From a virus (taxonomy: Duplodnaviria; Caudoviricetes), in IMG/VR virus record IMGVR_UViG_2775506876_000001, positions 12,549 to 76,548 of that record: 64,000 nt of DNA; one strand, 5' to 3'. Each line of letters starts with the position of its first letter. Position 1 is the stretch's first letter. Positions 9,707 to 64,000 of this stretch are shown piece after piece. The notes under the pieces were generated by a model. It did not search any database and was not told where the DNA came from. It saw nothing but the letters and a program-made list of their open reading frames with translations. Position numbers and translations under genes: made by a program.

Positions 9707-12700
9707 ATGCCTTTAATTGATGGATTTATAGGAACTTCAGGAACCGATTTATCTGGTAGAACTGCTTATAACGGTTCAACATGGACTAGAACCAGAAACG
9801 ATGGTGATAATACAAATTCAAAATTAATCATAAGTCCATCGGGGCGTGTAAGACAATGGAAAAAAATAAATGCTTCAAACTTTAGTGTTCACGCAAATAG
9901 TACACAAGTTAACACCACAAATTTTTATGAAGTTTTAGGCATTTTTAAATGGTATGGAGATCCTGATTTAATATCTTCAAGCCGTTCAAGTATTGGTTTT
10001 GGTTTAAGATATTTGAATTCTAGTAATAGTGGTTATGCTGCTACTATTAGATATTCTGAAGCGACTGGATCAACAAAATTATTTGCAATTTATAATTTAC
10101 AAAGTAACCAATATCCTAAGCAATCAGGAACTAATGAGAGTAGATGTCCATTAGTAACAGGACATAGCTATGCCATAATTATTCAAGCCGTTTCCGGTGC
10201 AATAAATGCTGGTGTGTTCAGTCTAACAACTGGTAAATGGTTAAGCGGTGGGCTGTTTGATACCATTTCAAATACTTTAGTAGTTTCATCAAAAGTTATA
10301 AACCCAAATATAACCCAGGTTGGTACACCTGCTATATTTGCAATTTTTGATCCGGCAACAAATCCTGCTGATGATGTTTCTTACAGCACTATACAATTTC
10401 ACGGTGCTGTCAGTGATGTTTTGTCTGAAGTTCCAAAATTAACTGTGGTTTCAGCACCACAGCAAGGTTTATCAGGACAAGCATCGACTAACTTTACTTT
10501 AGGATATACAGGGATTTTAGCACCAGGGAAAAATTATACTATTGTTCCCAGCGATTCGGGTGCTGGTGGTGTTTTTACACCTTCAACATTTAATATAAGT
10601 ACTACAAACACTACAGTAAGTTTTACTTATAAACCACCATTATTAAATCCAACCGATCCGCCTCAAGAAATTCCATTATCTTTTACGGCTGATGGTGTTT
10701 TATTAACCCAATCGAATTATACTAGTTATTCTTCAAACACCAATATTACTGATGATGGAACAAACCCAACATTTGAATATGTTGGATACACTAGCCCTAA
10801 TTTTAGGGTAACAATCAACGGTGTAAATCTGCCAACAACTGTTAACTTATCTGATAACAGTAATGGTGTTTTTACTCCAAATACTTTAACATTTACCTAC
10901 CCTGGACAAGAACTAACTTTTAAATACAGACCTAATAGTTTAGGTGATATCACATTATTTATAACGGGTAATAATTTTACAACAAAAACTTATAACTTTC
11001 AGGGATTAACACCAACAGTAGATATTAAATCAAGTCCAAATGTTGCTTGGCTCAACTATGCTAGTAAAACTTTCACTGTTGGTTTAAATGGTGGTGTTAG
11101 TCAACTGGCCGGTTCAATACCTTTAACTTTTAACTCTAGTGGTGGAACTTTCACACCTGCTAATGTAACTTTAACTGGTGCAAATCCTACAGCGACTTTT
11201 ACATTTACACCAAACACTACTGGCAATAAAACTATTACGATATCTTCAATATATGCAATATCAGCAACTAAAAATATTTTTGTTGGATTAAAACCGACAA
11301 AAATAACTTTAACTTTACCTAGTAAAAATAATTGTGAAATCAGCCAATATTCAGAAGCTTTTAATATTAGTGTTGATGGACTTGTTATCGATAATATAGA
11401 AGTTTTAGTAACTGATAATAATAAAAATTCTATAATTCCAAAAATAATATTTAGTAACCCTGATCAGATACCAAATCCGGTAAATAGTAAAGATTTTATA
11501 ATCAAAGTTTGCAACTCAGAAGCATTTATATTAACTGCAATATCACCAGGATTGACATCTAATTCCGTATCATTTACAGGAATTTTGGACACAACTAATT
11601 ATGATAGAAGTTTCATATTTAATGATGATTTTGAAAGAGGTAACACAACCTCATTGGGAAATGGTTGGTTACATGGTTCTCAATATTCTTTAGTTGATGG
11701 AAAAGTTGTCACAACTAACAAAACATTATCTGATGTTATAACTTTTTTCAGAGGTCAAGTAGTCAGAACCACTGTTAGATGTTTCCTAGATGAAGAATCT
11801 TTTACATTAACAAGTGCAGAATTAAACGCTTTTCATAAAGTTATTGTAGGTGATACGGTTCTTGGTAATAAACAAATACCGACAAGCACAACCGTTACAG
11901 CGAAAGCATCTAACAATTCATTAACACTTTCTAAAAAACCGACAGACAGTAATCCTAAAGACTGTTTAAGAGGTATTAGTATTGTAAATTCTGAAATAGA
12001 ATGTGAAATTCAACCACCATTAAGTTATCTTTGGAATCAGATACACACAGCAAGAATTATCAGCCGTAAACAAGAAAACAAAGACGCTAAATATTTTGTA
12101 GATATCAGTGCTGAAAACAAAGGTTCAACAATGGTTGTGATAGCATCTTTATTTACAAAGATTTCAACCAGGGAAAAGCCTGATAGAATTTATGTAAGAA
12201 AAGTTTATTTACAAAATACAGCACACACTTTCAGATTTACCACAATAACTTATGATTCTACAACAGTTTTAGAATTACGTGCTATTAACCCTAATAATGG
12301 AATAACAACTTTTATTTTTAGGGTTGTCAACGGTGAACCTGAATTACAAAAACCTGGTGATATTGGTATAAGCCACAATGGTGTTGCAACATTTAATAGT
12401 TTCTCTTATTACTCAATAACTACTAAAAAGAAAAATTCACCATTAAATTTTTATGTAGATATAAATAATGGGAATGATAACAACAATGGTAGTTATTCAG
12501 CACCATTTCAAAATATTTCTAAAGCCTTAAGTAAATATGAAAAAGGTAGAAATCTGATAATTGTAATCAGACCAGGGACATACAACACAACATATACAGA
12601 AGAAAATCCATTAATTCTTAGGGATGGTTGCAGTATTGTAGGTGAATCAACAGCACCAGTAATAAAAGCAAGTGTCTTAATTGATCAGAGTTCCGATAGT

Positions 12701-28391: not shown

Positions 28392-28440
28392 AACAAAAAG
28401 TCACTTTTTAAATTGTCTGACATATTATTGATATAATTTG

Positions 28441-34025: not shown

Positions 34026-34478
34026 TCAACTCCTTTTTGTGTAAATGATATCGAAAATTAAATGTACCAGTGCTGAAAGTTCCATTGCAACATAGAGAAT
34101 CATAGAATATTTCAGAACAGTTTCAAGATTTTGAAAATCGTTGTAAACCAATAATAGACCGGGAATAAACAACAAGTAACAGAATCTAATCAAACTTCCG
34201 ATAATCGGAAAATGTGTATAAAAGTTCCGATTAAAAAAGTTACCCTTGTGTTTAAATAACGCTCTATACGGTATCCAATAAAACTTTAGAATCGACCATT
34301 TTTGAGAAGGTCTAGATTTTTTCATATCTAAATCAGGACTTAAATATAACCCTGAAAATAGATAGAACCCTGAAAATGTTGCTAGTGTTATCATGTCCAG
34401 GGAATAGTATGAGCCTATAGCCCAAAACCCTGGTAATGATAGAAATATTGATTTATCGTGAGTTTTGCCAGATGCCAT
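34026..34478 (-). CDS. DUF2227-like metal-binding membrane protein
   Basis: 'MASGKTHD', 'LSPDLD', 'WIPY', 'THFPIIG', 'HLIFD'. Confidence 0.75.
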   Translation of the reverse strand: MASGKTHDKSIFLSLPGFWAIGSYYSLDMITLATFSGFYLFSGLYLSPDLDMKKSRPSQKWSILKFYWIPYRALFKHKGNFFNRNFYTHFPIIGSLIRFCYLLFIPGLLLVYNDFQNLETVLKYSMILYVAMELSALVHLIFDIIYTKRS

Positions 34479-34765: not shown

Positions 34766-35446
34766 TCAAGAGTATTTAAGCTTATATTTTTTAAAATTAT
34801 CAGATTGACAAAACAAACAGTTACGATTTTTAATCAATCTGATAGAATAACCAGAATCTTGGAATTCATGTCCATTGCTACAAATAGAACCAAAAGCGTA
34901 TAATTCCGGTTTTCTACGAAGTTCAATTAAAAAATCTGTAGCCTCTTGACTTAATTCAGCATTTTTGTATTCTCGCTGAATTCCTAGTTTTTCCCTGGTC
35001 ACTTGTTGGTATATTATTTTTTGTTGCTTTTTGATTTTTTCTTCATTTTCTAAACGGTAATTTATTGCGCAAAAAATACATCTTTTTGATATTTTATATC
35101 TGATAGAATAACCAGAATTTTCAAATTCATGATTATTCGGACAGATAGTACCAAATCTAAAATCATCGGAATTTTTACCACTAGCTTTTAAAAAGTTGAT
35201 AGCCGATTTAGTCAAAGGTGTAAATTTACCAAAAACCGATTCTTTTTTCTGTTTCACATGATCTTTACATTTTCTAGTTTTATTACATTCATAACAATTA
35301 TTACCGTTTTTATATCTGATGGAGTAACCAGAATCTCGGAATTCATGATTGTTCTTACAAATTTCACCAAATCTGTATAATTCTGGATTGCAGCCAGCAA
35401 ATATTAAATGATCTATAGCTTCTTGGCTTAATTCTGGGTAATTCAT
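34766..35446 (-). CDS. Protein with three Cys/His repeats
   Basis: 3x 'FGxICxNxHEFxxSGYSIR..CxxC'; ATG at 35446 preferred. Confidence 0.7.
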   Translation of the reverse strand: MNYPELSQEAIDHLIFAGCNPELYRFGEICKNNHEFRDSGYSIRYKNGNNCYECNKTRKCKDHVKQKKESVFGKFTPLTKSAINFLKASGKNSDDFRFGTICPNNHEFENSGYSIRYKISKRCIFCAINYRLENEEKIKKQQKIIYQQVTREKLGIQREYKNAELSQEATDFLIELRRKPELYAFGSICSNGHEFQDSGYSIRLIKNRNCLFCQSDNFKKYKLKYS

Positions 35447-35622
35447 ATCGATTAAATAAAAGTGACTTTTCAAGTATACAAACAATTCATAGAATTGTCT
35501 ACCTTTGAAAAGTCACTTTCTAGCTATGGGTATTATAAAAAGTTTGTCAAGTACTTGTAACAATCTGTAATGTCTCGGATAACTTTAATGGTTCAGTCCA
35601 GGTACAGCGTTTTTCTGTTTGC

Positions 35623-37236
35623 TTAAAATTTCGGAACAATACCAAGATAGTAATGACCAAGATAAGCAAACACAACGGGCTGTTTCAATCTTTGTGAAAC
35701 AACTTTGTAATTTTTATACTGTTCGCGTAAATTATCCCGGTCTTTCTTATCAGGTACTGCTTGAGGAAGATTTAAAGCGGTCTCGATAACTTTATAGCTT
35801 TCCATTTCTCGGTTATCTTTAATATATTTGTTGCCAAGTAACACAAGATTTAAACATGACCTAGTGCTTTGATCTAACTCTTTAATGCCTATGGCTTTCA
35901 GGTTTAAACTGTGTAATATTGCGACAAATTTGACGTTGTACTCCCGCCCAATAATTAAAATGTCTAATAACAATTGTGAATATTGAACATCAGCTTCATC
36001 GAGAGCGATCGCAGAACTGATCCAATCATCGAGTAACACGATAAAAGGTTTAAGATTATTGCGTCGATCTTCATCCAGGGACAATCTACGCTCATATTCA
36101 GTTTTGATATCGTTAAAAAATTCTTGTGCTTCTTGGATTTTGTCATCACCTATAAATCTATAGCAACAATCTTGTTCTCTTAAACCTTCGTAGCTGTCAT
36201 TTTTTACGCTGAATACTCTGGCATCAAACTCTGTGTAAGTGTCCTTTAATTGCCTCAAATACTCTTTAACGAATGAACTTTTACCACTACCTTGTTGTCC
36301 AATAATCACTGTTGAACCATCAGACTTTACAAGACTCTTAATCATGTCTCTAGTGTCTTGCTCAGATTTAGCAACATCAAAGTTACTACCCTGGACAGAA
36401 TCGTTTTGATTATCAAAATTATCCGAACTGTTGCTAGAACCATCTGAACCGTTGCCAGACTTTTCTAAATTCGGTTCATAACCACGTTGATCCAAACGTT
36501 CCATTTTCTTTTCACTAGTTTTTGACTCTAAATCATGCTTAAATTTTTCAGCTTTTAACCGTGCTAAATCTAAATCAAAACTAGAATTCTCGATAAGTTT
36601 TTGCTTTCTAGATTGTTCCTGTAAATATTCCTGATAAGCTAGTTTTTGCTCATCGGACATGTCCATCATTCTCAAACTTTGAAATTCACTTTCAATATTT
36701 TCTTGGATGTACTGAGTTTCTAGAACGGTTCTATACTTGGTTGTTTCGCGAGACTGCAAACCGATTAACTGAGCTTCAAGAGTTTCAGTTTTGTATTGTT
36801 CAAATAGTTCAGGGAATTCTCGCTTGTATCTGGTTGATGTCAGGCTGTAAAGTCCGTAAGAAACTGTTGAAAGTCCTACAGCCGCTATAGCATAAAAAAG
36901 GTAATTTGGGTTAGTTGCTTTATTAAAATTTACAATGTGTCTACCAGTTGCCGGAATCAAAAATTTATCATTCCCTGTAACAAATTCTGGGTTAGGTTTC
37001 AACTCATCCTTTTTCAACAAAAACTTAGGGCTAGTCCTAAATATGTCCTGACCATTTTTACAGAATTCAGATCTTGGTGTACTGTGTAAAACTTCTGGGA
37101 TAAAGCAAAAATCTACAGTATCATATTTAACATCTGACATACTAGTATACATCGATACAATACTGATGCCAGCAAAACAGAATGCTAATTTTGCTGTGTT
37201 ATCTCTTTGTTTCTTGATCTGTTTAAGCGGGTTCAT
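35623..37236 (-). CDS. Membrane-anchored P-loop ATPase (FtsK/HerA/coupling-protein-like)
   Basis: Two N-terminal TM segments, coiled coil, 'GQQGSGKS', 'IVLLDDW', 'IGREYNV..V..LHS'. Confidence 0.75.
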   Translation of the reverse strand: MNPLKQIKKQRDNTAKLAFCFAGISIVSMYTSMSDVKYDTVDFCFIPEVLHSTPRSEFCKNGQDIFRTSPKFLLKKDELKPNPEFVTGNDKFLIPATGRHIVNFNKATNPNYLFYAIAAVGLSTVSYGLYSLTSTRYKREFPELFEQYKTETLEAQLIGLQSRETTKYRTVLETQYIQENIESEFQSLRMMDMSDEQKLAYQEYLQEQSRKQKLIENSSFDLDLARLKAEKFKHDLESKTSEKKMERLDQRGYEPNLEKSGNGSDGSSNSSDNFDNQNDSVQGSNFDVAKSEQDTRDMIKSLVKSDGSTVIIGQQGSGKSSFVKEYLRQLKDTYTEFDARVFSVKNDSYEGLREQDCCYRFIGDDKIQEAQEFFNDIKTEYERRLSLDEDRRNNLKPFIVLLDDWISSAIALDEADVQYSQLLLDILIIGREYNVKFVAILHSLNLKAIGIKELDQSTRSCLNLVLLGNKYIKDNREMESYKVIETALNLPQAVPDKKDRDNLREQYKNYKVVSQRLKQPVVFAYLGHYYLGIVPKF

Positions 37237-37315
37237 GTTGTCCAGGTAATATTATACAAAAATGTCTGACAACTATTATAACAAGTGTCAGACATTTTAA
37301 AAAGTGACTTTTTAG

Positions 37316-37879
37316 TTAATCCATAAGATCCTTTAAAAATTTATAACCCATAACACCAGCAGCAGCACCACAACCTGTTAAAATTATAAATTTTAAATCA
37401 GGGTTAATTCCTTGTCTTTTATCCCTTTCATAATCTTGTTTATCTTGCTCATAAGCAGTAGCACTGACATCAGCAATTTTTAAAATATTACGAATCTCGC
37501 TTGTAGCAACAAATGTTAATGTTCCTGCTAATATCAATTTAATCAAACCATTAATAAGTTTCCCGTTAACACTGAAATTCATAGATTCACTGTCCTTAGA
37601 TATATTGAAATTGTCAGCGATCGCTTTCATAGCTGGTACTGATCCAATTGTAAAGCCTCCAAGAACAGCTAAGAACAGTGTAGAACCAACGTGAATCAAC
37701 CAAAGCGTTATGAACACATTCATAGAATTAAACATAACCATTTCTAACCAAGATTTAACAAATTCTTGTCTATTCAACTCTTTCAGATAATCTTGCTCAA
37801 GTCTTGCTAAATGTTCCTGGTTTTCCCTGGTAAACTCCAAATTTTGTTCTTGATTTTCATTTTCTTGAATATTAAACAT
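37316..37879 (-). CDS. Multi-pass membrane protein
   Basis: About 4 hydrophobic segments. Confidence 0.65.
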   Translation of the reverse strand: MFNIQENENQEQNLEFTRENQEHLARLEQDYLKELNRQEFVKSWLEMVMFNSMNVFITLWLIHVGSTLFLAVLGGFTIGSVPAMKAIADNFNISKDSESMNFSVNGKLINGLIKLILAGTLTFVATSEIRNILKIADVSATAYEQDKQDYERDKRQGINPDLKFIILTGCGAAAGVMGYKFLKDLMD

Positions 37880-38050
37880 GATATAATTCCTTTACACACT
37901 AGAGATTGCTATTTAAAAACCTTTAAAGTATGCTTATTATTTTAAAGGTTTTTTCTTGTCTGACATATTTTAACATTATAGTAAAAATTTAGACAATAAA
38001 AAATCCCTAGTTGTTATCCAGGGATTTAAAAAGTCACTTTTTGAATTAAA

Positions 38051-38647
38051 TCAATCGTTTCTCTCTTGTGTTTGTAAAGTGTTTTTAATAACACGTTTCA
38101 TATTCTTTTCGCAACAAAAAAACATAGACTTAAACAAATCAATATCATTTTCAACAGCTATCAAAAAGATAGATTGAATAATGTTAACAGAGATTTCAAA
38201 AAACTTTTCAGGATCAATATCAATGTTAAAAAGAATTGATTTTTTATAAAGTTCACAAAGGTTAAAAACATTTTCTGACAAATCTAGATTAAGATTTTCC
38301 GGGAATCCATTATATATATTAGCAAAAGTGAATTTCTCATCATAAGCCAATATAGCTAAATAAGCTAAAACATCACATAATTCTAAACCTAAATTATGTG
38401 TGTCTTTATCAGTTTTATCTTTGATTTTCAAAATAGATAAAACTTCACCAGCTTCACCAGCAACACCTAAAATTAAAAGAGTTGTTTTGTGAATTTCATC
38501 AACTTTATAATTTTGTTGATTTAAAATAAAAAATTTCTGAAAGCTTCTAAGCAAAGAATAAATTGATAATCCATTTTTTTCTTTTGAATTACAAGAATTT
38601 TCCATAGATGTTAACAAATTGTTCATGTCTTTTATTACTTCTGTCAT
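38051..38647 (-). CDS. MazG-like nucleotide pyrophosphohydrolase
   Basis: 'LGVAGEAGEV...ELCDVLAYLAILA'. Confidence 0.7.
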   Translation of the reverse strand: MTEVIKDMNNLLTSMENSCNSKEKNGLSIYSLLRSFQKFFILNQQNYKVDEIHKTTLLILGVAGEAGEVLSILKIKDKTDKDTHNLGLELCDVLAYLAILAYDEKFTFANIYNGFPENLNLDLSENVFNLCELYKKSILFNIDIDPEKFFEISVNIIQSIFLIAVENDIDLFKSMFFCCEKNMKRVIKNTLQTQERND

Positions 38648-38794
38648 TTCTTTAATCCTTGTTTTTTGTCCGACAAATATATACTAACTAATAATATTAT
38701 AAATGTCAACAAGTTTAATAAAAAATCCCTAATTGTTATCCAGGGATTTAAAAAGTCACTTTTTGATTTATCTAGTTTACAAAAATTGTAAGAT

Positions 38795-39469
38795 TTACAC
38801 AAACAATCCTAAACGTTCTCCAATACTTTGTAAAAAGCCTATAACACCTCTAGAAGCTGGTGTGTAATCTTTTTTGATTATATATTCCGGTCTTGACTGA
38901 TCACCATTGGTTAACAAGTGTGAAACAACCGCTTTTTGGTAATTTCTATCTTCTTGAATTTGTTTGATGCTTACCTGGTTTACCGTGTTAATAAGTTTTG
39001 CCTGCCCATCAACATTTTGCATCGATTGTTTAATCATGCCTTGTAGCTTGATATAAGACATTTCTAAATTATGTCGTTGATGTTCGAGCAATTTAGCGTG
39101 ATGAAAGTCAATAGCGTTTTCAGAACGACTATGTAAATATTGACTATTGGCTAACTTGATAGATGACTGAGCTTTTTCAATTTGTGTTGAACCTTTACCA
39201 GCAGCCTTGAGAATTTCTGCTTGATCTAAATTATATTGAGTTGTTGCTGTAATTTGATTAAGAATTGCTGCTTTTAATTGTGGTGCTAAATCATTATAAG
39301 TTTGTGCCTCTAAATTCATCTGTCCAAGCTGTTGACAAGCTTGTAACTGTGCTTCAGGATTACTGGTGTCTAAAGCCTGTTCCATCAATCCAAACATGTC
39401 ACCATAATTTTGAGAAAGCTTTCTAGACAGAGTTTTACCGTGTTGGGCAACATGATTTTTAAATTTCAT
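38795..39469 (-). CDS. Gln-rich coiled-coil protein
   Basis: 224 aa, helical, amphipathic C-terminus. Confidence 0.6.
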   Translation of the reverse strand: MKFKNHVAQHGKTLSRKLSQNYGDMFGLMEQALDTSNPEAQLQACQQLGQMNLEAQTYNDLAPQLKAAILNQITATTQYNLDQAEILKAAGKGSTQIEKAQSSIKLANSQYLHSRSENAIDFHHAKLLEHQRHNLEMSYIKLQGMIKQSMQNVDGQAKLINTVNQVSIKQIQEDRNYQKAVVSHLLTNGDQSRPEYIIKKDYTPASRGVIGFLQSIGERLGLFV

Positions 39470-39478
39470 AAAATAACC

Positions 39479-39898
39479 TCAATCATTTTTGTAAGTGTCA
39501 GACATATTATAACAAAGATTGATTTTGGTTTCACTATTATTACAAGATTTTTTTAAATAATTTTGGTAATTATTTGAATCCACTTGAGTAAATAAAGGAA
39601 ATAAAATAGCACTTGTGACCAGGGTAAAGAAACAAATTAAATAAAATGTTGTGTTTCTGTCTTGTACATGTTGCCAATAATTTATCAAATTCGACTTTGA
39701 TTGTTTTACCCTGGTCAATCTAGTTTTAATATCATCTAGAACTGTTTCAGAACTTGTAATTTTATCAATTAATTCTAGTTCCTGAACAACAATATTATTC
39801 AATTCGTTCTCGACAGTATCAGATATCAAAGCGATCGCTTTAGATTTTGAATCCAAACTAGTTTTAATTTCCTGGGCAGTATCTTTAAAGTTTTCCAT
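39479..39898 (-). CDS. Coiled-coil protein with one TM helix
   Basis: 'FYLICFFTLVTSAILFPLF'. Confidence 0.6.
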   Translation of the reverse strand: MENFKDTAQEIKTSLDSKSKAIALISDTVENELNNIVVQELELIDKITSSETVLDDIKTRLTRVKQSKSNLINYWQHVQDRNTTFYLICFFTLVTSAILFPLFTQVDSNNYQNYLKKSCNNSETKINLCYNMSDTYKND

Positions 39899-40020: not shown

Positions 40021-40215
40021 TTACACAGGTTTTTGATTCTTCTTAATCTGATAACCAATACCAGCAGCCACTAAACTTCCTAAAATTGTTACTGGTTCAG
40101 GAACGTCTTGAGGTTGTTTTTGCACTTGCTGAACTTGTTGTTTTTGTACTTGATTTGGTTGGTTGTCGCTAGGACAAGCTAAACCTAATGTGAAAATACA
40201 GAGAATGATATCCAT
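40021..40215 (-). CDS. Miniature PEP-CTERM sorting-domain protein
   Basis: Hydrophobic N-terminus, Gln-rich linker, 'VPEPVTILGSLVAAGIG..KK'. Confidence 0.8.
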   Translation of the reverse strand: MDIILCIFTLGLACPSDNQPNQVQKQQVQQVQKQPQDVPEPVTILGSLVAAGIGYQIKKNQKPV

Positions 40216-40353
40216 ATATAGATGATAAGTTTACATCTATATTATATCGTTTATGTATATGAAAAATATAAAGCTATTATAAATGTTCTGTAAAATAAAA
40301 ATTCTTCGGATAGTTTCAATTTATCCGAAGAATTTAAAAAGTGACTTTTTGAT

Positions 40354-40542
40354 TTAGATTAAATCTTTGAATTCATCCAGGGTAATTTGCTTGATGTATC
40401 TACGGTTTGCTTGTGCCGCTAAACGCTTCATTTGTCTTTTGGTTGTTCCCGTAACACAAGCGTTTTTAAATCGTGTAATATCCCAATAAAAACGAACGTG
40501 TATGGAACCTAAGTTAGCAAATTTATTGAAAGATTTGTTCAT
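40354..40542 (-). CDS. Small basic hypothetical protein
   Basis: 62-aa ORF in a co-directional cluster. Confidence 0.45.
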   Translation of the reverse strand: MNKSFNKFANLGSIHVRFYWDITRFKNACVTGTTKRQMKRLAAQANRRYIKQITLDEFKDLI

Positions 40543-40641
40543 GTTTTAGCTCTTTGGTAACTGAGCTAATGAAAAGAACCTCTAGTTTTGATTAACATAT
40601 TAAGATTTCCTTAAACTACTTGACAAAATTAACTGTTTGTG

Positions 40642-40878
40642 TTAATGAGCGTAAATTCCATAAACTTCTAGAGTATCTTGCCGATAACGATGGTTTTCTG
40701 GAAGCTTTTCTACAATTTCAATGTGATGTGAAATTATACAAGATTTCCAATCATAAACATCATCATCATCAAGCCATTCTAGCTGAAGTTGTAAAGCTTC
40801 CTCTGGTGTTTGAGCTTCGATGTAATTAATCTGGATTTCACCACCTTTATCTAGGTCTAGAGTGCTTTTGTAAATCAT
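40642..40878 (-). CDS. Small acidic hypothetical protein
   Basis: 'IEAQTPEEA'; ATGA overlap with upstream ORF. Confidence 0.55.
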   Translation of the reverse strand: MIYKSTLDLDKGGEIQINYIEAQTPEEALQLQLEWLDDDDVYDWKSCIISHHIEIVEKLPENHRYRQDTLEVYGIYAH

Positions 40879-41033
40879 GATTGTTTTTTAGGTTGTCTTA
40901 CATCACAAGGTTCAAAATCGGATTGTGTGTCTCGTAAGACTGCACATTTAGCATAATCTCTGGGGTTGTCATAGTGATAATCACATGTTTGGCATTGTTT
41001 AGGGATGTTGTCTTTTTCTGATTGTTTCGACAT
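40875..41033 (-). CDS. Small Cys-rich protein (52 aa, not in ORF track)
   Basis: MSKQ...CQTCDYHY...CAVL...EPC; AAGGA RBS; TGA overlaps next ATG. Confidence 0.6.
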   Translation of the reverse strand: MSKQSEKDNIPKQCQTCDYHYDNPRDYAKCAVLRDTQSDFEPCDVRQPKKQS

Positions 41034-41035
41034 TG

Positions 41036-41323
41036 TTTTGAATCCTTTAGAGTTAGTGGTTGTCTAGATAGAAATTGATTGACCAAGGAACTGATTATGA
41101 TTCCCACCATTGCCCATTATCTTCTTCATTTGATTCTTCAGCCATTACTTCAAGAATTTGTTCGTTTTCCCAAGCTTTATAAACAGCTTGGCTAATATTT
41201 TCAGAAAGTTCTACTTCAATAGAACCTTCAACTTTTTCAAATGAAACGATGCCATTAAATAGATAAGCCTTGTAAATCTTCATGATTTTGAATCCTTTAG
41301 AGTTAGTGGTTGTCTAGATAGAA
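41036..41323. repeat. 38-bp direct repeat (41036-41073, 41286-41323) flanking ORF 41095..41283
   Basis: TTTTGAATCCTTTAGAGTTAGTGGTTGTCTAGATAGAA. Confidence 0.9.
41095..41283 (-). CDS. Small hypothetical protein
   Basis: AAGGA RBS within the repeat. Confidence 0.55.
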   Translation of the reverse strand: MKIYKAYLFNGIVSFEKVEGSIEVELSENISQAVYKAWENEQILEVMAEESNEEDNGQWWES

Positions 41324-41446
41324 CCGGATTGCGTCAAGAATGACCTGAGTTAAGGTTTTTTCTTTGTTTTTACAGAATTCCTCAAGCTCTTGTCTGAGTT
41401 TTGGTGGAATTCGTAAACCAAACTGGGGTATTAAGTTCTTAGCCAT
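41303..41446 (-). CDS. Ribbon-helix-helix (Arc-like) regulator (47 aa, not in ORF track)
   Basis: MAKNLIPQFGLRIPPKLRQELEEFCKNKEKTLTQVILDAIRFYLDNH. Confidence 0.75.
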   Translation of the reverse strand: MAKNLIPQFGLRIPPKLRQELEEFCKNKEKTLTQVILDAIRFYLDNH

Positions 41447-45520: not shown

Positions 45521-46822
45521 TTAAGCAGCTTCTTGTTGTTCAGACAATTCAGAGGGTTTTTGTTTGCTTTGAATTTTTAAAACCTGTTCCTGAATTTTCT
45601 TAACTTTGTCAGCAATTTTAACAATTTGTTCAGGCATCAAATCAGGGTATTCTTGTACAGCCAGATTACTTAAGAACAAAGCAAAATCAGCTAAGTTATC
45701 TTTGGCTTGTCCTAACGCTTCAAAGGTAATAGCTTGTCTTTGAATGGTTTCAGAATCTTGTTCAGAATCTTGTTCAGAATCTTGTTCAGAATCTTGTTCA
45801 GAATCATCATCGTTATCATTAATCAAATTCTCAACACTAGCGGTTAAGAATTCTTTGGCATGTTCTAACGCTTCAACAGTTAAAGCATTATTAGAACCAT
45901 CTTGTAAACCAACAAAATCTAAAGCTTCATTAATGACTTTTTCAAAATCAGCTTCAGTTTCTTTGGTAATTTTTTCAACTTCATCGACTAAAGCGAAAGG
46001 TAGAACACCAGATTCAACAAGTTCTAGGACTTGTTCACCTTTTTCTAAAATTTCCTCAACACGATCAACGTCTTTAATTGTGACTTTGTTTTTACCCCTT
46101 TCATTAGCTGATTTAACAGCCAAGTCTAAATAGTTTTTGGATTCAATACCAGCTTTGCTAGATTTAGCTAACACTGTATCAGCTATTGCTAAATCTATGG
46201 TTCCATCATTTAAAGCGGACTTTATAAATTCATCCTCTGTTGTGGATACTCTTAAAATCTGCTGTATCCAAGTTTCTGATTTACCCTGAATTGCTGCTAT
46301 AAAAGTTGTAACCTTTTTACGTAATTTTTTAACAGCTTTTTCATCCGGTTCCGTACCATTTTCTTTGATATATTCATCTAAAACTTGTTGATATTTAATA
46401 TCAAAGATTTCCTGAATGCCTTTAGAATATTCAAACGGTTTTAGTTGATTATTGGTTGTTCCTAAAGAAAGCATCCAACTTTTGCGCTTGATAGGATCTT
46501 CAGCATCCTCAACGGGCATGATAATATACGGAAAATCTAAAGATCCTTTGTATTCGGGATCTGTTGCAAGATTTTGTAGAGCTGCTAATCTGGAATTACC
46601 ATCCCAGACAACCCTTTTACCATCAACATTATATACAGATGGTAAAACAACACCAGGAATTTTAACACCACCATCAGCCTTGATAGCGGCTGTTAACTCT
46701 GGTCTATCGATTATTTCACGATAATTTTCGTCAGTTACAACAAATTCGGAATAATTTGCAGTATAATAGGTCTTTTTAGTTGCTGCCATATCAGTTACGT
46801 TATCCTCTAAAATGTCCGACAT
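45521..46822 (-). CDS. ParB/Srx-like N-terminal domain protein with HTH and acidic C-terminus
   Basis: 'GVKIP....VVWDGNSRLAAL' (GxxRxxA box); 'IAAIQGKSETWIQQIL' HTH. Confidence 0.72.
   Translation of the reverse strand: MSDILEDNVTDMAATKKTYYTANYSEFVVTDENYREIIDRPELTAAIKADGGVKIPGVVLPSVYNVDGKRVVWDGNSRLAALQNLATDPEYKGSLDFPYIIMPVEDAEDPIKRKSWMLSLGTTNNQLKPFEYSKGIQEIFDIKYQQVLDEYIKENGTEPDEKAVKKLRKKVTTFIAAIQGKSETWIQQILRVSTTEDEFIKSALNDGTIDLAIADTVLAKSSKAGIESKNYLDLAVKSANERGKNKVTIKDVDRVEEILEKGEQVLELVESGVLPFALVDEVEKITKETEADFEKVINEALDFVGLQDGSNNALTVEALEHAKEFLTASVENLINDNDDDSEQDSEQDSEQDSEQDSETIQRQAITFEALGQAKDNLADFALFLSNLAVQEYPDLMPEQIVKIADKVKKIQEQVLKIQSKQKPSELSEQQEAA
45749..45805. repeat. 12-bp tandem repeat encoding (DSEQ)4
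   Basis: TTCAGAATCTTG x4 plus a partial unit. Confidence 0.9.
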
Positions 46823-61451: not shown

Positions 61452-62222
61452 TCACTTTTTATTTACTTGTTGTTTAGCTTTTTTGATGTTTGCAGCCGTA
61501 ACTGCTTCAATAGGTTTGATGTTATCTTCATCAATGAACTCAGCAACTCTAGCTTCAGCGCGTTCTAAAGTTCTCAGACTATTAGCATCGATATGATCAC
61601 GGCTTTCATTTCTAGAACATCCTAAGAACTGTTCTAAATTCTTAGCGTCAACATTCCATAATGCTTGGTAAATTGCGTTAGTTGTCACAGCATACATTGC
61701 ATGAATAGGTCTAGATGTTGCACCAGGGTTACGCTGATACCAATCTCTGATCGCGTCTGTTAAAGGTAATCTACCGTTATCAATTCCTGAACGTCTGACT
61801 TTATCCCAGATTAAAAGTAATTGTTTTTGAGCTTCTTCCGCTTCATTTGTTAGAGCTTGAAAATTACCATTAATTACGTGCCATAGAGTTTTATTAGCCC
61901 AAAATTTGAAATCAACAGATGACCAAGCTGCTAAATCTAAAGCTATTAAATGGTGTATCCAAGTTCCTCTTAGATTAATATCTCCGTGTAGTATCTGTAT
62001 AATTAAGTCCGTCCCTGAGAAGGACTCACTTAGTTTAACTAAGTATTCCTGTGTTTTACTATACTCTAAATACTTAGCCCATCTTTTTCCACTCGCTTTA
62101 CACATTTCTGTGGCGTTAACATATCCTTTAGGAATTAACACACCACTAATTAATGTTTCTTCAGATGTTTGGCTAATCACTTGATTAGCGTATTGATGAG
62201 ATGCTAAATTAATCTCAGCCAT
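61452..62222 (-). CDS. KilA-N domain DNA-binding protein (antirepressor-like)
   Basis: 'GYVNATEMCKASGK', 'RGTWIHHLIALDLAAW'. Confidence 0.9.
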   Translation of the reverse strand: MAEINLASHQYANQVISQTSEETLISGVLIPKGYVNATEMCKASGKRWAKYLEYSKTQEYLVKLSESFSGTDLIIQILHGDINLRGTWIHHLIALDLAAWSSVDFKFWANKTLWHVINGNFQALTNEAEEAQKQLLLIWDKVRRSGIDNGRLPLTDAIRDWYQRNPGATSRPIHAMYAVTTNAIYQALWNVDAKNLEQFLGCSRNESRDHIDANSLRTLERAEARVAEFIDEDNIKPIEAVTAANIKKAKQQVNKK

Positions 62223-62328
62223 TACTTATCACTGTAAGTTATTGGTTAGTGGCAGGTTTGAATTAACGGTTCTTGCCTGCCATGTCTTTATACTACATCA
62301 GCTTTGAAAGCAAGTCAATGAGTATTTA

Positions 62329-62661
62329 TTACTTATTGAAATAACTTTTAGCAAATTCACCAGAAATTTTTACACAAAAAGCATTCTCATTTGTAAATGC
62401 TTTTTGTTCTTTTGTTGGAAAATATTTAACTAAATTTTCAGACACTTTAAGAATTATTTGGCTAGTGTTTGTTGCAAAATATTCTCCAACTTTTATATTT
62501 TGAAAAGTTGTTTTTTCGTTTTTAGAAACTAAATCATTTAATTCTTTAAAAAACAAAGCTTGTTTTTCTGACTCTGCAAAAATACTGAAATGTTTCAAAG
62601 GGTAGGAATCCTGTGTAATTACTGTAACGTTTTTTTCGTTGTCAACTTGGTAATAATTCAT
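62329..62661 (-). CDS. Hypothetical protein
   Basis: 110-aa ORF between two copies of a promoter repeat. Confidence 0.55.
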   Translation of the reverse strand: MNYYQVDNEKNVTVITQDSYPLKHFSIFAESEKQALFFKELNDLVSKNEKTTFQNIKVGEYFATNTSQIILKVSENLVKYFPTKEQKAFTNENAFCVKISGEFAKSYFNK

Positions 62662-62806
62662 GTTTTCTCTCGGTTGGTTGTGTTTGTTTCTATGTCTCTA
62701 TATTAGACAAGCTTTCAAAGCAAGTCAATAAGTATTTATTACTAATTTAAATAAAACAATAATTCTATAATTCGATGATATCGAACAATCAAATTACAAC
62801 CGATAT

Positions 62807-64000
62807 CTATAATTCAGGAACCTTAAGATCCTTGTTAAACCCTGCATAGTGCTTGTAAATTATCTCTGGGCTATTGCCTACCCAGTTTGCAACGTCTTTG
62901 GCATCTATACCAGAGTCTAGACATAGCGTGATAAATGTGTGTCGAGTCTGGTATGGATTCTTGTAACTTGATAGCTTACCCTGGTCAATCAAGTCTTTAA
63001 TTATCCCGTTTTTCCATACATTGTATTGCCAGTACTTGAAATCTATCAGTTGCTTGTTGTACTTGTTAGTAAAAATAAATTGTTCAGGCTTATGGCTAGA
63101 CAATTTAAAATCTAGAATGATCTGGTGTAACTGGTCATTAATTGGAAATTTTCTTTTACGCTGAGTCTTTAAACTGTTCTGAATATGCTTTTGACTTTGA
63201 ACTAAAATCTGTTCAAAAATTATAAATTTTTCATTCAGATTTATATGTTTCCATTGCAAGGCTAGTGCTTCACTCGGTCTAGCACCAGTAAAAAATAAAA
63301 ACTGGACAAGGAACGAATAGCAACCATATTTTTTACTGTGTTCAAAAGCATCAATAATTAAGTCTCGCTCAGTTCTCGTAAACGGATTTATGTCTAGTTC
63401 TTGCTTTTTGGGTTTTGGTAACGCTTTAATCACATCAATGAACGGATTGCTTTCTATAATTTTTTCATTGACTGCCCAGCTACAACAGCGTGAAATTTCT
63501 GATAAATATTTACGGACAGAGTAAAGCGTTTTAGTTTCAAGTAAAATATTTTTGATTTTTAGAGCGTCTGTGACCAGGGTGAACTGTTGTGATTGTATCC
63601 AATTGTTAACCTGTTCTAGCCTAGATTTAATTGTATTCAGGCTGTAAACGTTTCTCTTTACATCAATATATCTAGGGAACAGAATTTTCAAGTCACTAGA
63701 GTTAATGACACGAGTCTCGTTAACTATCCAATCATCCCAGTTAAATTTACCAGCTTCTAGCTGACCATTAACTATCTTGATTTTTTGCAAAACATACTTT
63801 AACCCGTTTTCAGTTAAAGTACCGTGTTTACCCATGCTTATGAATTGCTGGTAAGGTTTTGCAGAGTCTTTTTTCAACCAGGGTTTAACGGGTAGTGTGC
63901 CACGTAACCATAATTTATTATTCTTAATGACAATTGATACATAACTTTTGGTTATCTTTAATTTCTCGTTTTCTTGTGCAACCCTGGACTGAATATCCAT
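62807..64000 (-). CDS. int: Tyrosine recombinase / integrase, cyanobacterial type
   Basis: 'TGARPSEALAL', 'PYQTRHTF', 'GNS...HY'; N-terminal 'LWLRGTLPVKP...PYQQFI'. Confidence 0.93.
   Translation of the reverse strand: MDIQSRVAQENEKLKITKSYVSIVIKNNKLWLRGTLPVKPWLKKDSAKPYQQFISMGKHGTLTENGLKYVLQKIKIVNGQLEAGKFNWDDWIVNETRVINSSDLKILFPRYIDVKRNVYSLNTIKSRLEQVNNWIQSQQFTLVTDALKIKNILLETKTLYSVRKYLSEISRCCSWAVNEKIIESNPFIDVIKALPKPKKQELDINPFTRTERDLIIDAFEHSKKYGCYSFLVQFLFFTGARPSEALALQWKHINLNEKFIIFEQILVQSQKHIQNSLKTQRKRKFPINDQLHQIILDFKLSSHKPEQFIFTNKYNKQLIDFKYWQYNVWKNGIIKDLIDQGKLSSYKNPYQTRHTFITLCLDSGIDAKDVANWVGNSPEIIYKHYAGFNKDLKVPEL

Follow-up and report, generated by a model that had tools for sequence, protein, structure and literature searches.

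What does a membrane-anchored P-loop ATPase, encoded among membrane and helical proteins, do for a tailed prophage that already has a terminase? The question is raised by positions 35623-39898 of a 64,000-nt stretch of DNA (the window: positions 12,549 to 76,548 of IMG/VR virus record IMGVR_UViG_2775506876_000001), for which an earlier note, made from the letters alone, had suggested a module that spreads DNA from cell to cell. The reading we favour, with somewhat less than even confidence, is that the region encodes a membrane machine: a relaxase-independent motor that would move the element's double-stranded DNA (dsDNA) at or through the cytoplasmic membrane. A membrane-anchored FtsK-HerA ATPase would form its core, with a multi-pass membrane protein and a soluble helical protein as fixed companions, and the element's own dsDNA would be transported at the expense of ATP, much as by TraB (Streptomyces), TdtA (Thermus) or FtsK/SpoIIIE. 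We think of a machine that handles dsDNA because of the fold class of the motor, its membrane anchor, its fixed membrane partner and its carriage by replicons that lack a relaxase and a type IV secretion system (T4SS).

The open-frame listing of the window gives five co-directional open reading frames (ORFs) in this span:

35623-37236, minus strand: ATPase gene, 537-aa P-loop protein
37316-37879, minus strand: gene of a multi-pass membrane protein, 187 aa, three or four hydrophobic segments
38051-38647, minus strand: MazG-like gene, 198 aa, weak profile matches
38795-39469, minus strand: gene of a Gln-rich helical protein, 224 aa, without a hydrophobic segment
39479-39898, minus strand: gene of a 139-aa protein with a helical N-terminal half and one hydrophobic segment

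The four genes described by the earlier note are all open frames at these places on the minus strand; its inventory had overlooked the fifth, the MazG-like gene. In a hydropathy scan, its Gln-rich protein is confirmed (12.1% Gln, zero hydrophobic segments), as is the membrane segment of the protein to which it gave a coiled coil and such a segment (the 139-aa protein, single segment at residues 82-100). The protein to which it gave about four membrane segments is indeed multi-pass, with three segments in the scan (residues 52-70, 107-125 and 164-182), the first stretch being long enough to hold two.

The ATPase was rightly described as a P-loop protein with two membrane segments. Alignment places Walker A at G313-S320 and Walker B at D403-D404, and hydrophobic 19-residue segments lie at residues 15-33 and 114-132. 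Their Kyte-Doolittle means (1.35 and 1.30) are moderate, equivalent segments in relatives reach up to 2.3, and each of the 23 representatives has at least one hydrophobic segment ahead of its ATPase domain. The loop of ~80 residues between the two segments holds a Cys pair (C59 and the invariant C44), which would fit an oxidising, periplasmic location. GxxGxGKS and hhhhDD are conserved in the family, and 23 diverse members share invariant Gly and Lys in Walker A, a Lys after strand 2, the Walker B Asp, two Pro and R459 (R175 of the domain), the last of which could act as an arginine finger. A full-length AlphaFold2 (AF2) model from 11 sequences was set aside at a pLDDT of 55.6, and the ATPase domain alone was interpreted; in that low-confidence model, residues 112-250 are predicted to be helical, about 115 of them beyond the second segment, followed by a low-confidence linker (251-292) and the P-loop domain (285-537).

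To which class of motor does this domain belong? Residues 285-537 were modelled with AF2 on an alignment of 23 diverse relatives from related loci (pLDDT 93.2, pTM 0.90), and the model was compared by exhaustive alignment with 48,161 representative chains. The best 19 of these chains, at Z 11.9-14.4 over model residues 1-253, are all ATPases of the FtsK-HerA superfamily: DndH-C, EccC and TcpA (14.4), HerA (14.3), FtsK (13.6), VirB4 (12.7) and the STIV2 B204 packaging ATPase (12.3), together with EssC and TdpAB. In the same comparison TrwB reaches Z 10.7, and secretion ATPases and RecA-type proteins lie near 10. The modelled domain thus has an FtsK-HerA superfamily fold. The earlier note had let its proposal stand or fall with a translocase structure for the ATPase, and the fold matches that of FtsK-HerA translocases. 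It had also proposed a check for a DNA-binding tail, which the window ATPase lacks, as it stops at the motor domain. Foldseek ranks EssC (E 2.9e-6) and EccC (E 6.8e-6) first and has EssC, EccC, FtsK and TcpA within its top 8. In a viral structure library the best match by far is an uncharacterised 712-aa protein of a Nodularia phage (E 1.4e-13, TMq 0.80), followed by many A32-like packaging ATPases.

Sequence families are less telling. Pox_A32 is the sole Pfam family above cut-off (25.2 bits for the full protein and 27.5 for the domain, vs 22.8), below it the Pfam matches are to generic P-loop families, and an NCBIfam scan gave nothing above its cut-offs. A search of PDB sequences with the family profile yielded P-loop-level matches alone (best Hsp101, E 6.2e-4) and was discarded. 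The Pox_A32 score, STIV2 B204 and the viral-library matches liken the protein to packaging ATPases of the A32 type. However, Pox_A32 is above cut-off in one of 23 family members, namely the window ATPase, the prophage packages by terminase and portal, and plasmids that have no capsid carry the gene.

The breadth of this fold class brings in two explanations in which the motor would not move the element's DNA. As a device of defence or exclusion, a membrane-anchored ATPase like HerA or DndH, with a C-terminal effector or sensor that varies, would guard the lysogen or the plasmid host from phage and from the entry of foreign DNA. Chains of DndH-C, Sir2-HerA and TdpAB rank high in the structural comparison (Z 13.0-14.4), the C-terminal tails of the relatives are highly variable, and prophages and plasmids frequently carry defence genes. 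PADLOC adds a weak mad8 match (E 1.6e-4), but it covers the P-loop region only, no PADLOC family goes beyond the P-loop, and none is matched by the partners. Moreover, Pfam, PHROG and NCBIfam scans found no nuclease, Sir2 or other effector partner in the window, the plasmid copies keep a fixed backbone position by ParM and a replication gene rather than a place in a variable island, and the family is also found in large Nodularia phages, so that we regard defence as quite improbable. Protein export in the manner of a type VII secretion system (T7SS), or another membrane function that does not involve DNA, would make the small genes upstream its substrates or subunits. This idea draws on the first two places of EssC and EccC in Foldseek, on the tied top Z of EccC and on the several genes of 52-91 aa that precede the module on plasmids and in the window (40021-41283). 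Yet the protein has one ATPase domain, vs three in EssC and EccC (PDB titles), the Pfam and NCBIfam scans show no T7SS partner family, and the small upstream proteins are not conserved between window and plasmids; we consider export of protein very unlikely.

Are the neighbours of the ATPase fixed companions? We fetched 86 related loci and counted ATPase ORFs of at least 430 aa, of which there are 81. A membrane ORF lies upstream of the ATPase ORF in 71 of the 81, and an iterative hidden Markov model (HMM) search found the 224-aa family 46 times, in 46 of the 86; in view of these two counts the gene set is no chance arrangement. On plasmids of filamentous cyanobacteria, Nostoc among them, ParM precedes the syntenic trio of ATPase, 224-aa helical protein and multi-pass membrane protein. 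The order there is constant: ParM/StbA, several genes of 53-91 aa, a 147-aa gene (its family present in 41 loci), a 223-aa gene, a membrane protein of ~190 aa and the ATPase, with a replication gene on the upstream side; downstream comes a response regulator or a tyrosine recombinase. In plasmids of filamentous cyanobacteria the module belongs to the backbone.

The correspondence between the prophage and plasmid sets differs from gene to gene. Similarity of the 224-aa protein to the 223-aa protein of pNPUN04 (BLASTP E 3.2e-11) identifies it by sequence as a true member of the plasmid family, which stands two genes upstream of the ATPase there; in the ESM Atlas it finds only unnamed cyanobacterial clusters, at scores below 0.9. 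The membrane protein that precedes the ATPase on plasmids has ~130-250 aa, and its counterpart in the window by position and topology is the 187-aa protein, which has one close homolog (68%). In distant branches, viral contigs among them, a gene of 226-289 aa and a membrane-protein gene occupy the same two places, with profile matches that are weak and collinear. The partner proteins match no known family in Pfam, PHROG, NCBIfam or the ESM Atlas, and the ATPase family has no name in Pfam. The Spd-like partners of the earlier note therefore survive as membrane partners; with no kinship to any known family, their likeness to Spd proteins is one of analogy. Full-text literature searches turned up no description of the module, supplementary tables (e.g. 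PMC8600333 Table 4) lying outside them.

How widely is the ATPase carried, and by what? A word-indexed protein search returned 11 proteins including the query, and an exhaustive profile search of 1.84 billion representatives returned 153 clusters at E ≤1e-30 and 330 at E ≤1e-10; the family is small. Relatives lie on 29 PLSDB plasmids (20 of Nostoc, two each of Oscillatoria, Leptolyngbya and Tolypothrix, and one each of Calothrix, Aulosira and Microchaete) and on 59 genome contigs, mostly of Nostoc and some of Mojavia, Anabaena, Calothrix and Stenomitos. Ten distant clusters were looked up, and the two with an organism name belong to Dulcicalothrix and Nostoc. Genomes may hold several copies (seven loci in Nostoc flagelliforme FACHB-838, five in Nostoc sp. 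FACHB-892). Among viruses, seven IMG/VR contigs carry a relative, two of them with terminal repeats (75.7 and 188 kb) and two of them proviruses, as do nine GenBank records of isolated Nodularia siphoviruses (139-147 kb). The Nodularia phages were reached from a more distant viral relative only; GenBank phages gave no match to the window ATPase, to 15 kb of window DNA or to one viral relative. Because viral rows are scattered through the ATPase tree (five changes, at least three of them forced by well-supported branches), the module appears to have moved between plasmids and phages more than once.

The named hosts of the relatives are all filamentous cyanobacteria, save two metagenome bins labelled Saprospiraceae and Acetobacteraceae; we suspect misbinning, since the tree places both sequences within Nostocaceae rows. 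When the phylum was sampled evenly, matches came from 16 of 401 genomes, the window's own included; they were concentrated in the family to which that genome belongs (6 of 45) and in a second family of its order (5 of 25). The 225 genomes of twelve further families gave only two short, weak matches (65-94 residues, E about 5e-4, in genomes of 1.8-2.0 Mb), which were treated as P-loop noise. The restriction to filamentous hosts that the earlier note had expected thus holds for the named relatives. It is confounded, however, by a control gene: the element's DUF3987 replication protein has a nearly identical host spread with a similar filamentous bias, for which reason the restriction may only mark a gene pool and cannot serve as evidence for a role at the septum.

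In a 100%-complete, two-contig genome of 9.96 Mb, the window corresponds to C1:626187-690186 on the minus strand and lies in a low-GC island at about 625-704 kb (about 0.31, vs 0.414 for the chromosome). A 28-bp exact direct repeat at C1:626020 and C1:703859 bounds an element of 77.9 kb, with a tyrosine integrase just inside one end (window 62807-64000). TerL (Terminase_6N/6C), portal and major capsid protein are encoded at window 2.6-9.4 kb, and the element further encodes a J-like tail fibre, a helicase, a DHH phosphoesterase, a DUF3987 primase-helicase, a family-B polymerase, RusA and KilA-N. The element is an integrated tailed prophage, and the module lies inside its leftward, replication-side block (31.5-50 kb), at the end of which the DUF3987 gene is found.

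Conjugation genes, in contrast to the terminase, are missing, as the earlier note had said of the phage: in the host genome the relaxase families PF03432, PF01076 and PF08751 and the VirB4 family PF03135 gave zero matches while the controls matched, other relaxase families not having been searched. This bears directly on the possibility that the ATPase is a type IV coupling protein (T4CP), which would hand relaxase-bound single-stranded DNA to a T4SS supplied in trans. Its two N-terminal hydrophobic segments and nucleotide-binding domain have the T4CP layout, TcpA and TrwB are found at the Z scores given above, seven of the 29 PLSDB matches fall under genes that PGAP names 'type IV secretory system conjugative DNA transfer family protein', and 19 of the 29 plasmids are typed as mobilizable or conjugative (13 as mobilizable without a T4SS). 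The remaining 10, however, are typed as non-mobilizable. Furthermore, the T4CP families T4SS-DNA_transf, TraG-D_C and TrwB_AAD_bind give nothing for the window ATPase at E up to 1, TrwB_AAD_bind matches one of 23 members (E 8.6e-4), the 253-residue domain model has no inserted all-alpha domain, and such a protein has no known use in phages. We hold a coupling protein to be highly improbable.

A closer competitor is a device for segregation only, which like FtsK/SpoIIIE would act at a closing septum or during differentiation to bring element copies into the daughter and would move none between finished cells. On plasmids the module follows ParM/StbA in a same-direction string, with a replication gene and a tyrosine recombinase nearby, and this is as compatible with segregation as with transfer; several plasmids in one genome each have their own copy, as for replicon-specific maintenance functions. 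For Bacillus phages, a link between phage-borne FtsK/SpoIIIE genes and segregation of the phage genome into spores is discussed in PMC8597652. A weak further point is that the window's own genome has no PF01580 match above cut-off in a first-look scan that may have missed one; ftsK is listed in Nostoc punctiforme (PMC12691664), and the host FtsK may be divergent or may have escaped the scan. On the other side, the studied copy is in an integrated prophage, which the chromosome already segregates, and no ParM-like protein was detected in the window. A 433-aa ORF at 45521-46822 was considered for ParM and rejected, with no Pfam match and no hhalign match to the plasmid ParM groups. Lastly, the family is carried by the isolated Nodularia siphoviruses, which we take to be lytic and thus without a need for inheritance. 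Segregation as the sole function seems unlikely to us.

Within the favoured reading of a membrane machine that moves the element's dsDNA, our weight is divided about equally between two purposes: the export of element DNA, or its spread, into adjacent cells along the filament, and the clearing or segregation of that DNA at the division septum. The ParM-led operon and the per-replicon copies favour a role in inheritance; the presence in Nodularia phages and in an integrated prophage, without a need for partition, favours a role in infection or spread.

Which known machine would it resemble most? TcpA of Clostridium perfringens pCW3 (PDB 6o1x) is one of three structural matches tied for best (Z 14.4, root-mean-square deviation 3.4 over 210 residues, 15% identity). 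It consists of an N-terminal membrane anchor followed by one compact FtsK-like domain, as does the window ATPase. TcpA works with a relaxase and a Gram-positive T4SS, however, whereas the host genome lacks the searched relaxase families and VirB4. FtsK and SpoIIIE share with the window ATPase a membrane anchor, a linker and a RecA-like motor, with E. coli FtsK at the Z of 13.6 given above and DNA-bound FtsK in the Foldseek top 8. FtsK has four membrane segments, in contrast to the two hydrophobic segments found here, and the window ATPase has no alpha or gamma domains and no Pfam match to this family, its gene being found on mobile elements instead of the chromosome.

TdtA offers a workable model for a filament of diderm cells. 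It is a HerA/FtsK-type ATPase from ICEth1 of Thermus thermophilus, an integrated element with a phage-type recombinase, and is described in PMC5365140 as hexameric and located at the membrane, where it drives DNA from the diderm donor, uptake being left to the competence system of the recipient. The likeness drawn here is one of description. TdtA has a NurA-like nuclease and a restriction enzyme alongside (PMC5365140), whereas the window holds no such partner. A hexamer of this kind is also how the window ATPase might assemble, as a ring.

The analogy drawn by the earlier note was to Streptomyces, where plasmid-encoded TraB and Spd proteins form a complex for dsDNA translocation (PMC4447253). 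It stands as far as a single FtsK-type ATPase, accompanied by small membrane proteins, without relaxase or T4SS is concerned, which is the arrangement of pSVH1 and pIJ101 (PMC4447253), and the hosts of the module are filamentous wherever named, like the multicellular Streptomyces. It fails at the level of sequence, no kinship with TraB being detected in the FtsK_SpoIIIE score (11.6 bits), and for the C-terminal winged-helix domain, which in TraB reads the clt repeats and is missing here together with any clt-like repeats. The window ATPase differs too in the long helical stretch from anchor to motor, and the module as a whole in its diderm host, its tailed prophage and its partners, which are unrelated to any named family.

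Several observations weigh against a dsDNA-moving membrane machine. DNA would be the substrate on the strength of the predicted fold class, which is the one line of evidence that speaks for it; ATPases of protein secretion (EssC/EccC) and of defence (DndH, HerA) belong to this class too and reach equal Z scores. The Pfam family FtsK_SpoIIIE (PF01580) reaches E 0.19 in the window ATPase, or 11.6 bits against a cut-off of 24, and matches one of the 23 members, at E 8.2e-4. The window ATPase ends with the motor domain, with 0 residues beyond it, vs 87-204 in 20 of 23 representatives, and because this C-terminal tail is missing it has no evident DNA-recognition part; among ten tails of relatives that were scanned, one gave a weak helix-turn-helix match (HTH_IclR, E 0.0018). 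No clt-like repeat array was found within or beside 35400-35700; in related loci Tandem Repeats Finder, at a permissive score and without a control, found short repeats of period 7-13 downstream in some. A long helical stretch between membrane anchor and motor is not known from TraB, TcpA or FtsK. Finally, homology of the partners between phage and plasmid is solid, by sequence, for the 224-aa protein alone: the 187-aa protein aligns weakly with the main plasmid family (hhalign probability 39.7%, 73 collinear columns), and the 139-aa protein, though in the same place as the plasmid 147-aa family, has no similarity to it by profile or hhalign.

A more specific proposal, which we think unlikely but of wide consequence, is that of a septal dsDNA pump common to plasmids and phages of filamentous cyanobacteria, by which they would pass their genomes into neighbouring cells. 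On plasmids, ParM would drive the DNA towards the cell poles, and the poles of cells in a filament are septa. If this were so, a phage that has infected, or been induced in, a single cell could reach all cells of the filament before lysis or with no lysis at all. The module would then be a cyanobacterial counterpart of TraB/Spd spreading in Streptomyces, and a multicellular bacterium would offer viruses a new path of transmission. Multicellularity in filamentous cyanobacteria is genuine. A conserved motor of DNA-pump class in the membrane, which their plasmids, temperate phages and isolated phages have in common and which comes without conjugation genes, is a testable candidate for the movement of DNA within filaments or for a new form of element inheritance. 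Homologs lie on plasmids of model strains, pCC7120gamma of Nostoc sp. PCC 7120 (gene at record positions 61987-63933) and pNPUN04 of Nostoc punctiforme, which makes genetics feasible.

How is the module organised as a transcription unit? Three non-coding features lie between its genes:

37259-37311, no strand: intergenic signals between the 187-aa gene and the ATPase gene, an inverted repeat and motif counts
38001-38027, minus strand: terminator-like hairpin 3' of the MazG-like gene
38723-38749, minus strand: terminator-like hairpin 3' of the 224-aa gene

The first consists of a palindrome of 20+20 nt with two copies of ATGTCTGACA, followed by one copy of AAAGTGACTTT. The 11-nt near-palindrome AAAGTSACTTT occurs 29 times across the window, vs 0.18 expected (for example at 468, 4845, 28397, 35459, 35509, 37301, 39915 and 60082), nearly always between genes and in both prophage arms; it might act as a promoter, operator or terminator specific to the phage. 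The motif ATGTCWGACA occurs 9 times, vs 0.18 expected (positions given: 17503, 28414, 34675, 37262, 37286, 37957, 39496 and 53319), and often lies 10-25 nt from AAAGTSACTTT; the two stand together, for instance, in front of the ATPase gene and just ahead of the tail-fibre gene at 28438. Jointly they may make up a composite regulatory site, and since both recurrent motifs sit between the 187-aa gene and the ATPase gene, the latter may have its own start signal of an element-wide type.

The two hairpins are near-identical and bracket the MazG-like gene, which is why we read this gene as an insertion: it is probably an accessory gene placed into an older unit of three or four genes, and it looks as if it was inserted together with its terminator. 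The 198-aa protein matches Pfam MazG below the cut-off (E 0.0074) and PHROG 229 at E 4.6e-5. Iterative HMM comparison found no counterpart among the 86 related loci, and the gene is probably not part of the conserved module.

Further genes flank the module. Just downstream of the ATPase gene, 34766-35485 on the minus strand encodes a 239-aa protein of three internal repeats (58-nt repeats at the DNA level, 79-81% identical), each with a C..H...C..C zinc-ribbon-like pattern; its matches are weak PHROG matches of unknown function alone. It might bind DNA on behalf of the tail-less ATPase, as a separate partner. Also downstream, two genes from the ATPase, 34026-34478 (minus) encodes a membrane-like protein with the 'metal-binding' domain DUF2227 (E 9.6e-27), for which the related loci hold no counterpart. 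On the upstream side, 40021-40215 (minus) encodes a 64-aa protein with 18.8% Gln, a Cys at position 14 and, at its C-terminal end, a PEP motif, a hydrophobic stretch and a basic cluster; we take its start to resemble a lipoprotein signal and its end a PEP-CTERM sorting signal. Two consecutive small genes upstream of the module are each preceded by a copy of a 51-nt direct repeat (41031-41081 and 41281-41331, 90% identical).

At C1:9161009 of the same genome lies another, divergent ATPase copy (619 aa), again after a membrane-protein gene. Around it (C1:9150000-9169999) lie a serine resolvase, a GH25 lysozyme and a 1179-aa protein with M23 and lytic-transglycosylase domains, and the region is probably another integrated element. 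The part of the prophage outside the window has, at L094:3021-12635, an unusually large, tape-measure-like ORF of 3204 aa with M23 peptidase and VanY domains. Inside the far prophage end, L094:12713-13315 (minus) encodes a 200-aa protein that matches GGDEF at 24.9 bits (cut-off 23.8) and may be a prophage-borne diguanylate cyclase.

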